Positions 8,835 through 11,234 of a DNA stretch of 26,705 nt are shown in pieces. The notes under the pieces were generated by a model that was given only the letters and a program-made list of their open reading frames with translations, did no database searches and was not told the origin of the DNA. The stretch comes from Oscillospiraceae bacterium (GTDB taxonomy: Bacteria; Bacillota; Clostridia; Oscillospirales; Oscillospiraceae), in assembly GCA_017480395.1 (NCBI GenBank), contig JAFVAS010000311.1, positions 1 to 26,705 on the forward strand, written 5' to 3'. Each line of letters starts with the position of its first letter. Position 1 is the stretch's first letter. The translations under genes were made by a program, and so were the position numbers.

Positions 8835-9908
8835 TTACTGCTCGTAGATGGAGTCGAAATTGACACCGTCCGCGAAGTGGATCGCCCGGGCCTGCGCCCA
8901 GCCGCCAAAGTGGTTGATGTCCGTCAGCACCACGTTGTCGTTGATCCATTTGCCGTCCGCCGGAATTTCGGTGATGGTGTTGCCCTCTCCGGAGGACACA
9001 TACTGGTCGTAGATCTCCCGGGTGCTGGGCCGGTAGAAGTTCTCCGCCTCAATGACCTGGGCCTCATCGGAGTAGAGGAAGTTCAGATACTCGGTGGCGG
9101 CGTCCACGGTGCCGTGCTTTTTGGCCACCTCGTCCACCACCGCCACGGTGGGCTGGCACAGGATGGAGACGGAGGGAACCACGATCTCATAGTCGCCGGG
9201 GTACTCCTTCAGGGAGAGGAACGCCTCGTTCTCCCAGGCCAGCAGCACGTCGCCCTGGCCGTTCTCCACAATGGAGGTGGTGGCACCCCGGGCGCCGGAG
9301 TCCAGCACCACCACGTTGCCGTACAGGGTGCGGATGGACTCCAGGATCTCGTCATCGTTCTGGCCCTGGAGCTCGAAGAAGTACCAGGCCGCCAGGTAGT
9401 TCCACATGGCGCCGCCGGAGGTCTTGGGGTTGGGGGTGATGATGCCCACGTCGTCCCGGATCAGGTCATCCCAGTCGTAGATGCCCTTGGGGTTGCCGGC
9501 GCGAACCAGGAAGACGATGGTGGAGGTGTAGGGGGAGCTGTCCAGGGGGAACTCGGCGGTGAAGCCGTCGTCGATCAGGCCGGCATCCGCCACAACCTTG
9601 ACGTCGCCCTCCAGAGCCAGGGTGACCACATCGGCCTCCAGGCCGTTGGACACCTCCAGGGCCTGCTTGCCGGAGCCGCCGTGGGACTGGGTGACCTCGA
9701 TCTTCTGGCCGGTCAGCTCCTCGTAGTGGGGCTCAAAGATCTCGTTGTATGCGGCGTAGAGCTCACGGGTGGGGTCGTAGGAGACGTTGGTCAGCTCGAT
9801 GGTGCCGCCGGAGCTTCCGCTGGAGGAGGCACCGCAGCCCGTCAGCGCCGTCAGGATCAGCGCGGTGGATAGGATCAGCGCACCGAGGCGCTTGCCATTG
9901 AATTTCAT
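8835..9908 (-). CDS. sbp: Sulfate ABC transporter substrate-binding lipoprotein (Sbp/CysP family)
   Basis: Signal peptide with lipobox LTG-C; NVSYDPTRELY, QSHGGSGKQA, TPNPKTSGGA, WENEA. Confidence 0.95.
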   Translation of the reverse strand: MKFNGKRLGALILSTALILTALTGCGASSSGSSGGTIELTNVSYDPTRELYAAYNEIFEPHYEELTGQKIEVTQSHGGSGKQALEVSNGLEADVVTLALEGDVKVVADAGLIDDGFTAEFPLDSSPYTSTIVFLVRAGNPKGIYDWDDLIRDDVGIITPNPKTSGGAMWNYLAAWYFFELQGQNDDEILESIRTLYGNVVVLDSGARGATTSIVENGQGDVLLAWENEAFLSLKEYPGDYEIVVPSVSILCQPTVAVVDEVAKKHGTVDAATEYLNFLYSDEAQVIEAENFYRPSTREIYDQYVSSGEGNTITEIPADGKWINDNVVLTDINHFGGWAQARAIHFADGVNFDSIYEQ

Positions 9909-9968
9909 GATAAAAGAACCTTCTTTCTGGTTTCCGCCCGTTCGGGGGGGTAATTGAGTTTATGGGGC

Positions 9969-9998
9969 AAAAAAATGGCAGGACGTGATCATCCCGCC
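9969..9998 (-). terminator. Intrinsic terminator in the sbp leader (attenuator)
   Basis: Minus strand GGCGGGAUG-AUCA-CGUCCUGCC (9 bp, 2 GU pairs), then A and UUUUUUU. It lies 60 nt upstream of the sbp ATG and 28 nt after the leader ORF stop. Confidence 0.8.
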
Positions 9999-10026
9999 TT
10001 CTGGTGTAGCATATTGAGACCTGCGC

Positions 10027-10131
10027 TCAGCAGTACAGAGACATTCGGACGCAACATCGGGGCATACACATTCGGCTGGACTTGGTATGGGAACAACAAC
10101 ACATCTTATGACAGATACACATTGTCTTCAT
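10027..10131 (-). CDS. Cys/Met-rich leader peptide (34 aa): MKTMCICHKMCCCSHTKSSRMCMPRCCVRMSLYC
   Basis: Manually translated; below the size shown in the ORF track. RBS GGAAAGGAAG just upstream of the ATG. 9 Cys and 6 Met codons. Sits between the promoter and the terminator of the sulfate operon. Confidence 0.8.
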   Translation of the reverse strand: MKTMCICHKMCCCSHTKSSRMCMPRCCVRMSLYC

Positions 10132-10149
10132 AGCGCGCTTCCTTTCCCT

Positions 10150-10177
10150 ATTTTCCCTATCGGGTTTGTGGGTTTAT
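10150..10177 (-). promoter_or_regulatory. Possible Rrf2/CymR-type operator overlapping the predicted transcription start
   Basis: ATAAACCCACAAACCCGATAGGGAAAAT has an imperfect CCC...GGG dyad and resembles my recollection of the CymR consensus (C..A....ATMGG spacing). Confidence 0.35.
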
Positions 10178-10183
10178 GCTGAG

Positions 10184-10212
10184 AGTATACCATACCTTCT
10201 ACCAAAACGCAA
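10184..10212 (-). promoter_or_regulatory. Sigma-A promoter of the sulfate operon leader
   Basis: TTGCGT (10212-10207), 17-nt spacer, TATACT (10189-10184), with extended -10 TG. Confidence 0.78.
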
Positions 10213-10379
10213 TCCCCCAGCCATTCCCCTTTTCCATAGCTGGCTATTTGGAAAAGAGATAACGGGCGAAATATTCTCCGCTCATTTGCGTTCCAGCCCC
10301 TTTGCGCCCCGCTCCCATCTGCGCCGAGGGGCCAACAACCATTCCTATGCGGCAAGCCACCGCGTGACAGCGGCAGTGA

Positions 10380-10425
10380 AACGAAAAACGGTCGGGGATG
10401 CGCGCAAGCCACGCTTCCCCGACCG
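10380..10425 (-). terminator. Intrinsic terminator of the PaxB-like gene
   Basis: 10-bp stem CGGTCGGGGA/TCCCCGACCG (10389-10425) followed on the minus strand by TTTTTCGTTT. Confidence 0.7.
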
Positions 10426-10493
10426 CTCGGCCGATGATTCCACGATTGCTCCCCGTCGGAGCGGGATACCACGCGCCAATGGGGCCGTCCCGC

Positions 10494-11105
10494 TCACTCC
10501 GCCTTGGGGAATTTCGGCAGAAGGATAATATAGAGGATATCAAACACGCTGCACACCAGCCCCATCAGCACGATATACGGGTTGAAGCCCCAGACAACGC
10601 CCTGCAGGACGGTGGGGGCCAGGGTGCCGATCCATTTGGCCACCGCAATGGTCATGGACTGCCCCCGGGTAGAGTTTCTCCGAAACAGCATGACCACAAA
10701 CAGGATGGACATGGCCGCATTCTGGGCGAATGCGGAGTACTGCGCCGCCGGAAGCGGGTCAAAGGCCAGGAAGAACGCCAGTTGGATGACGGCGCAGGCG
10801 GCAAAGGAGAGGATGGAAAAGGGGACAAAATACTTCTTTGCGCGCTCCGGGAACTCCCGCCTGCCGAACTCGAAGTAGGTGTAGACGATCACCGCGTCCA
10901 GGCACATCCACGCCAGATTGACAAAGGCCTGAACCGAGACGTCAAAGAGCAGATCATGAATGGTGTAGATCGTCTCCCAGGCGATATTCAGGCCCAGGGC
11001 ATACAGCGGCATGGCATAGGTCTTGGCCCTGAAGCCCTGCCGGATGCAGTCGATATACACGACAGACCATGCGATTCCACTGAGCAGAAGTAAAAACAGT
11101 TCCAT
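10494..11105 (-). CDS. Integral membrane protein of the PaxB/Pyr4 (transmembrane terpene cyclase-like) family, 203 aa
   Basis: About 7 hydrophobic helices; motifs W..Y...R...KTYAMP..AL.LNIAWE, RGQS..IA..KWIGT, FDILY. Start re-called to ATG 11105 (AAGGAGG RBS). Confidence 0.72.
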   Translation of the reverse strand: MELFLLLLSGIAWSVVYIDCIRQGFRAKTYAMPLYALGLNIAWETIYTIHDLLFDVSVQAFVNLAWMCLDAVIVYTYFEFGRREFPERAKKYFVPFSILSFAACAVIQLAFFLAFDPLPAAQYSAFAQNAAMSILFVVMLFRRNSTRGQSMTIAVAKWIGTLAPTVLQGVVWGFNPYIVLMGLVCSVFDILYIILLPKFPKAE

Positions 11106-11117
11106 ATGCGAGCCTCC

Positions 11118-11170
11118 TTGACATGTGTCAGCGTTATAGGTATAATAGTCAAAAAGCTGACAGGTGTCAA
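11118..11170. promoter_or_regulatory. Overlapping divergent sigma-A promoters with two inverted 14-bp operator palindromes
   Basis: Plus strand: TTGACA(11118)-N17-TATAAT(11141). Minus strand: TTGACA(11170)-N17-TATTAT(11147). Boxes TTGACATGTGTCAG (11118-11131) and CTGACAGGTGTCAA (11157-11170). Confidence 0.8.
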
Positions 11171-11234
11171 TACCTCTGGCACAAGTGGTACAGATGGCCG
11201 TTTCTGTCAGGGTTTGCATGGGAGGGAGCACGCA

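Follow-up and report, generated by a model that had tools for sequence, protein, structure and literature searches.

Positions 10131 to 9969 on the minus strand of the window, that is, of the complete 26,705-nucleotide stretch of Oscillospiraceae DNA analyzed here, probably constitute a ribosome-mediated leader-peptide transcription attenuator that senses charged tRNA-Cys and controls an operon for sulfate uptake and assimilation, with an upstream two-part helix, termed AT1, as its main antiterminator. The sequence features of this regulator class are all present, namely a short open reading frame led by a Shine-Dalgarno sequence, an enrichment of Cys codons and an intrinsic terminator, and so is, in silico, the geometry by which an early stall frees the antiterminator and a ribosome at the stop codon prevents it. 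The first gene of the presumed regulated operon is sbp (8835-9908, minus strand), encoding a sulfate-binding protein, which is followed in the 3' direction on the same strand by cysT (8774-7938), cysW (7924-7094) and cysA (7075-6002). All four pass the curated NCBIfam cut-offs (NF008022, 376 bits; TIGR02139, 372 bits; TIGR02140, 338 bits; TIGR00968, 356 bits).

The leader ORF (10131-10027, minus strand) comprises 34 codons and a UGA stop codon (10029-10027) and is preceded, 6 nt 5' of its ATG, by the Shine-Dalgarno region GGGAAAGGAAG (10148-10138). Nine of the 34 codons specify cysteine and six methionine, while cysteine makes up 1.3% of the residues encoded by long ORFs genome-wide. The Cys codons fall into an early set (codons 5, 7 and 11-13; 10119-10093) and a later set (codons 22, 26, 27 and 34), and rare codons prevail: seven of the nine are UGU, which accounts for 17% of Cys codons in long ORFs, and all three Arg codons are CGA, with a share of 4.6% in long ORFs. 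Since one tRNA-Cys(GCA) and one tRNA-Arg(ACG) are encoded in the incomplete assembly, UGU and CGA would both be read by wobble pairing. From the sequence we infer that the leader ORF is translated and that ribosomes stall on it. A search for RNA-seq runs covering the locus returned DNA runs alone. Other Cys-rich leader ORFs combining a Shine-Dalgarno sequence with a T-run were sought in the window's own genome, which is 80% complete, and none was convincing. Two direct repeats lie within the leader. One, AAUGUGUAU, occurs at codons 4-6 and 21-23 (10123-10115 and 10072-10064) and the other, CCGAAUGU-N-U-N-UG, at 10075-10063 and 10048-10036; internal duplication may have enlarged the leader.

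The terminator that the preliminary description had placed at 9998-9977 together with a run of seven U residues was called by our terminator scan. Its 5' arm GGCGGGAUG (9998-9990) and 3' arm (9985-9977) form a 9-bp stem with a 4-nt loop, the hairpin having a free energy of -14.2 kcal/mol, and are followed by an A and the U7 tract (9975-9969). The distance from the leader stop codon to the terminator is 28 bases, and sbp starts at 9908. Judged by sequence comparison, the terminator is real and conserved, compensatory changes included: in five homologues 92.5% of its columns are paired, against 37-57% in slid controls, two pairs are changed on both sides and the GCGGG core of the 5' arm is invariant.

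Relatives of Sbp were gathered from genome and metagenome collections. Sbp orthologues sharing 83-92% identity are preceded by homologous Cys-rich leaders at L002/L139, L134-L136, L138 (partial) and L140, and the leader at L137 is identical to that of the window. A Cys-rich ORF in the same frame is present in L002/L139, L134, L138 and L140, with four to eight Cys per 27-32 codons; the homologous leaders show early runs of Cys codons, have AAGGAG or GGAGG ahead of the ATG and, wherever the 5' end is intact, begin with MK. Invariant blocks are CGAATGT, CGATGT and the GCGGG...CCYGC of the terminator. A second family, the L003-type leaders, is unrelated in sequence and follows the same design at nine loci. 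Other searches yielded less: BLAST of the leader against 61 relatives matched the window itself alone, a sequence-only covariance model (R1) run on 150 genomes of the family gave weak chance matches, none with a Cys-rich ORF, and exact-pattern scans of genome contigs returned the contig of L002 and otherwise matches in Verrucomicrobiota, Actinobacteria and Alphaproteobacteria that were coding or fortuitous.

The antiterminator favored here shares the 5' arm with the terminator and consists of two helices on the minus strand. In the first, P1, the left arm GUCCAGCC (10081-10074), which nearly repeats the terminator 3' arm GUCCUGCC, pairs with 9998-9991; it begins 14 nt past the first base of the Cys13 codon. 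In the second, P2, the left arm GUGUAUGC (10069-10062), which encodes Met21-Cys22-Met23, pairs with GCUACAC (10010-10004), as found both by folding of the window sequence and by RNAalifold, and this helix is part of the minimum free energy structure from a 3' end at 9999 on. P1 is predicted to stack on P2 and thereby to close a hairpin of about 90 nt, the apical domain of which (10056-10011) contains codons 26-34, the UGA stop codon at the apex and a small CUGC/GCAG hairpin. The latter (10033-10030 with 10024-10021) had already been described correctly, with the UGA in its loop. An apical stop codon is likewise seen in L002 and the L003-type leaders. When the growing transcript is folded, the hairpin 10069-10004 (-15.3 kcal/mol) forms before the 5' arm of the terminator has been made, and in the nascent RNA this arm pairs with 10081-10074 with a probability of 0.80-1.00. 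The P1/P2 structure is predicted for each of the homologues, and the homologous P1 reaches 0.96-0.98 in L002/L139, 0.6-0.9 in L138 and 0.68 in L140. Furthermore, unguided RNAalifold on five nascent leaders predicted P1, P2 and the apical hairpin, five pairs of P2 being retained in four to five of the five sequences.

Position is a further argument for P1. In all seven leaders compared (window, L002, L134, L138, L140, L018 and L019) the minimum free energy partner of the 5' arm lies no more than 13 nt 5' of a conserved CGAAUG, which happens in 6-27% of shuffles per sequence, the leaders being related to one another so that kinship overstates their independence. In the alignment 62.5% of the P1 columns are paired (17 of 20 for the core four pairs), as opposed to 32-52% in slid controls, with L138 and L140 requiring register shifts. 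Compensatory double changes in P1 were not found in the five-homologue alignment, as is explained by its right side being the invariant GCGGG. The strength of sequestration as such is not distinctive: with neither candidate helix is the energy by which the 5' arm is sequestered higher than in upstream shuffles (37/300, 179/300, 60/300 and 120/300 reach it), and in 59-99.7% of shuffles some upstream segment can pair with the G-rich arm. In addition, the P1 left arm overlaps the conserved Ser/Thr-x-Arg-Met stretch of the peptide, so part of its conservation could reflect coding and not pairing. At full length, the terminator state (-31.8 kcal/mol) lies about 5 kcal/mol below AT1; the terminator is therefore thermodynamically favored and the switch would have to be kinetic. 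Taken as models, the helices 10081-10074/9998-9991 on 10069-10062/10010-10004 are better supported as the antiterminator than the one drawn in the preliminary description, which paired 10051-10036 with 10003-9990.

How ribosome position would act on these structures was modeled by masking 28 nt with the ribosome placed at each codon in turn. With stalls at codons 1-13 the partner of the 5' arm is 10083-10074, and sequestration amounts to 9.3-10.9 kcal/mol; a stall at codon 16 lowers it to 2.3 kcal/mol. A ribosome with Cys13 in its A site protects the RNA to about 10083, just short of P1. From Cys27 to the stop codon the value is 2.7-3.8 kcal/mol, provided that pairing across the ribosome is disallowed. 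The attenuation logic put forward earlier is hence borne out in silico insofar as early Cys stalls favor a competing structure and arrival at the stop codon favors termination, but the competing helix is a different one: stalls between Cys5 and Cys13 give 10083-10074 as partner and not 10051-10036. The expectation that stalling at Cys26-27 would not antiterminate agrees with the scan, in which a ribosome at these codons favors termination. The same spacing recurs in the L003-type leaders, where the antiterminator left arm begins 2-3 nt outside the footprint of a ribosome halted at the CC run and forms the base of a hairpin of about 100 nt with the leader stop codon in its apical loop.

Stalling, kinetic competition and the regulatory outcome are thus envisaged as follows. 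The segment 10069-10004 would fold first, comprising P2 and the apical domain that holds the end of the leader and its stop codon. Only if a ribosome is held upstream, at Cys codons 5, 7 or 11-13, could P1 close, in that the emerging 5' arm 9998-9991 would zip onto 10081-10074 at the base of the hairpin and block the terminator. With plentiful cysteine the ribosome would cross P1 and P2 and, in reaching the stop codon, melt the apical domain; the freed 5' arm would then pair locally with 9985-9977 and transcription would end at the U tract. A ribosome at the stop codon leaves P1 and P2 themselves uncovered, so the block rests on the assumption that they cannot close around it; it would come about because the apical domain is melted and the terminator, being local, folds faster.

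The helix of the preliminary description deserves separate consideration. Its 13 pairs exist as drawn (CGUCC/GGAUG, UGUCU/AGGCG and CUG/CAG, interrupted by bulges of GAA and A), its left arm CGUCC-GAA-UGUCU-CUG (10051-10036, minus strand) coincides with leader codons 27-32 and it takes up the entire 5' arm of the terminator. Within the left arm, 10048-10036 forms a direct repeat (13 nt, 85% identity) with 10075-10063 at the P1/P2 junction. By itself the helix has -9.6 kcal/mol, and the bimolecular duplex -11.0 kcal/mol. When it is enforced on a 91-nt RNA the fold has -16.3 kcal/mol, compared with -25.3 kcal/mol for the free fold, which includes the terminator. When the 128-nt upstream region was dinucleotide-shuffled 2000 times and tested against the unchanged 14-nt right arm, 74.5% of the shuffles yielded a duplex of equal or greater stability; the helix is therefore not beyond chance. 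In the unconstrained nascent ensemble the probability that the 5' arm pairs with this left arm is about zero, and folding of the growing transcript shows the left arm to be engaged in the apical hairpin before RNA polymerase has reached the 5' arm. For a ribosome positioned on Cys13 (RNA 10082-9985), the state that contains this helix has -16.5 kcal/mol, as compared to -26.6 kcal/mol for AT1. Across the five leaders 57% of its columns are paired, the 13 pairs of the window counted in, which is no better than slid controls (35-54%), and RNAalifold on the five nascent leaders returned nothing resembling it. Compared with the terminator the helix is thus much the weaker structure, and it lacks conservation; in these models it may at most serve this window alone as a back-up when the ribosome stalls at Cys22.

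Such a back-up is the substance of the best surviving alternative, a two-tier switch in which AT1 responds to early Cys stalls and the helix 10051-10036/10003-9990 to a stall at Cys22 within the Arg-Met-Cys core; we regard it as a rather unlikely elaboration. A ribosome stalled at Cys22 covers P1 and P2 and leaves 10051-10036 free, and in the mask scan A-site codons 21-23, and only these, make the 5' arm change its partner to 10050-10040 (5.6-8.2 kcal/mol of sequestration). That the left arm is a repeat copy of the P1/P2 junction fits the idea as well, and in L002, too, stalls at codons 20-24 bring in a second partner (8.4-9.1 kcal/mol), but that partner is a different, non-homologous segment. 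No comparable second helix is apparent in L134, L138 and L140 (mostly 1.7-4.8 kcal/mol in the split model), the helix itself is of chance quality, and starved ribosomes should seldom pass five earlier Cys codons.

In about 99 distinct regions upstream of sbp orthologues, CGAATG occurs 39 times on the sense strand and its reverse complement nine times. The window has two copies (10074-10069 and 10047-10042, minus strand), and the motif is found at L002, L003, L005, L018, L019, L033, L037, L046, L056, L062, L074, L134, L138, L140 and L149, the core being common to several distinct leader families; L005, L074 and L149 are CGAAUG leaders without an obvious intrinsic terminator. It is always read as CGA-AUG, that is Arg-Met, in a short ORF led by a Shine-Dalgarno sequence and usually stands beside Cys codons (RMC, RMYC, RMRCC). 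Many sbp leaders of Clostridia contain the in-frame core CGA-AUG-(CGA)-UGU-UGY, encoding Arg-Met-(Arg)-Cys-Cys with the rare, wobble-decoded codons CGA and UGU. It is conceivable, albeit doubtful, that this core is an undescribed sulfur-sensing stall module to which the window adds two nested antiterminators, AT1 and, for a stall at Cys22, the helix 10051-10036/10003-9990. If true, a stall module with two nested antiterminators would produce a graded response instead of an on/off one.

A switch that does not depend on ribosomes is decidedly improbable. It would have the CGA(A)UGU repeats (10074-10068, 10059-10054 and 10047-10041, minus strand) bind a protein or another factor, or else the terminator would be constitutive and leaky, the Cys-rich ORF being secondary in either case. 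The sense-strand excess of CGAAUG is in line with it, as is the maintenance of the motif as nucleotides, always with the rare CGA and even before a stop triplet (L046, L054), and AT1 would leave GAAU single-stranded within an internal loop. On the other hand, the motif lies in frame within a Cys-rich short ORF led by a Shine-Dalgarno sequence in every family, no known RNA family is matched and no candidate gene for a binding protein adjoins the leader. Least probable of all, and barely tenable, is the original model in which 10051-10036/10003-9990 is itself the antiterminator, free upon an early stall and masked by a ribosome at the stop codon (protecting about 10044-10017) or at codons 26-34: such masking would be a simpler block than the one required for AT1, and all 13 pairs cover the whole 5' arm, but against this stand the shuffles, the vanishing nascent probability, the engagement of the left arm in the apical hairpin, the early-stall state that is 10 kcal/mol worse than AT1, and alignment columns and RNAalifold predictions that offer it no place.

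The trp, his, leu and thr operons of E. coli are controlled by the classical leader-peptide attenuators. As in these, the window has a short, Shine-Dalgarno-led ORF enriched in codons for the amino acid end product, an intrinsic terminator located between this ORF and the first structural gene, an alternative helix that uses the 5' arm of this terminator and regulatory codons about 12-14 nt 5' of the left arm of the antiterminator. In contrast to them, the leader is predicted to sense cysteine, has Met codons interleaved and precedes genes for sulfate uptake and assimilation in a Clostridia-type genome. Furthermore, its antiterminator is the base of a hairpin of about 90 nt with the stop codon at the apex, and while in the E. 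coli systems the terminating ribosome masks "region 2", here it would melt the hairpin. A clear 1:2 anti-antiterminator was not found in the window leader.

In Firmicutes, sulfur genes are usually ascribed to S-box riboswitches, T-boxes or CymR-type repressors. S-box (SAM) riboswitches and T-boxes for Cys and Met are the usual leaders of such genes (PMC1262725) and sense SAM or uncharged tRNA directly, without a translated ORF. The element of the window resembles them in its location in the 5' leader of a sulfur operon and in its output, terminator versus antiterminator, and differs from them by its Cys-rich ORF and by the absence of a match to an Rfam model. Neither the window nor any of 14 related leaders matched an Rfam family at the gathering threshold, and with E values up to 10 no relevant match appeared in region 9500-10600; scans of the window together with 34 related sbp loci gave no family and no S-box or T-box model match.

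Cysteine-dependent leader peptides have precedents outside the Clostridia. In mycobacteria they were first predicted in an earlier study (PMC1262725), and polycysteine leaderless sORFs are described as attenuators of a "Cys ribulon" (10.1101/834739). According to these accounts of actinobacterial leader ORFs, stalling at Cys codons raises downstream expression by unmasking a ribosome-binding site, a translational mechanism without a terminator (10.1101/834739; PMC1262725). The window leader shares with the mycobacterial sORFs the Cys-rich upstream ORF before a cysteine or sulfur operon and differs from the leaderless ones by its Shine-Dalgarno sequence, 5' UTR and conserved intrinsic terminator. 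The uORFC-8-2 motif is a predicted ribosome-mediated attenuator 5' of cysS in Rhodobacterales, and like the window leader it has tandem Cys codons in an upstream ORF, behind which lie a terminator stem and a U run (PMC8632094). Unlike the window leader, it belongs to Alphaproteobacteria and to a gene for cysteinyl-tRNA synthetase, has its two Cys codons at positions 14-15 and forms a two-stem structure (PMC8632094); the two have no sequence relation. In Firmicutes, leader peptides were described as a new observation in a survey from 2010 (PMC2965389). Our literature search, which is not proof of absence, found no Cys leader attenuator for sulfate uptake in Clostridia, and the window leader is likely a Cys attenuator of known type that is newly seen in this class.

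If this holds true, a translated, terminator-based cysteine attenuator would be a further layer of control over sulfate assimilation in gut and rumen Clostridia; related leaders precede many sbp orthologues, and none is in Rfam. As to method, a single hand-drawn helix is not evidence, since the G-rich arm of the terminator pairs in almost any upstream sequence. The working antiterminator is picked out by its position relative to the sensing codons and by conservation across homologues.

Upstream of the leader, a putative promoter can be discerned from sequence at 10212-10184 (minus strand), with TTGCGT (10212-10207) as -35 element, a 17-nt spacer, a TG at 10192-10191 and TATACT (10189-10184) as -10 element. 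The -10 element is of the extended type (TG-n-TATACT), and this promoter arrangement aligns in L002, L134 and L140. A consensus promoter scan made no call at 10184-10212, the -35 element having three of six matches. The putative promoter implies a 5' UTR of about 46 nt before the leader ATG. That the terminator merely ends the upstream gene at 10494-11231 was ruled out, as it lies 500 nt 3' of that gene and past both the putative promoter and the leader. About 24 nt 5' of the putative -35 element there is a palindrome, ATAGCCAGCTAT (10247-10236, minus strand), and similar palindromes (ATAACAGGCTAT, ATAACCAGGTAT and ATAACCAGTTAT) occupy the equivalent position in L002, L134 and L140; the palindrome may be the operator of a transcription factor working together with the attenuator.

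At L142 (230-470), the Sbp orthologue has 83% identity and is preceded by a related upstream ORF with two Cys and without a U-tract terminator, which resembles a degenerate form of the leader. Rumen and gut metagenome-assembled genomes labeled Planctomycetia or Thermoguttaceae (L028-L032, L072 and L093-L095) also encode Sbp proteins with 73-76% identity to that of the window, which suggests either that the transporter moved horizontally between phyla or that binning errors occurred; at L028, a short upstream ORF begins with MNCCM.
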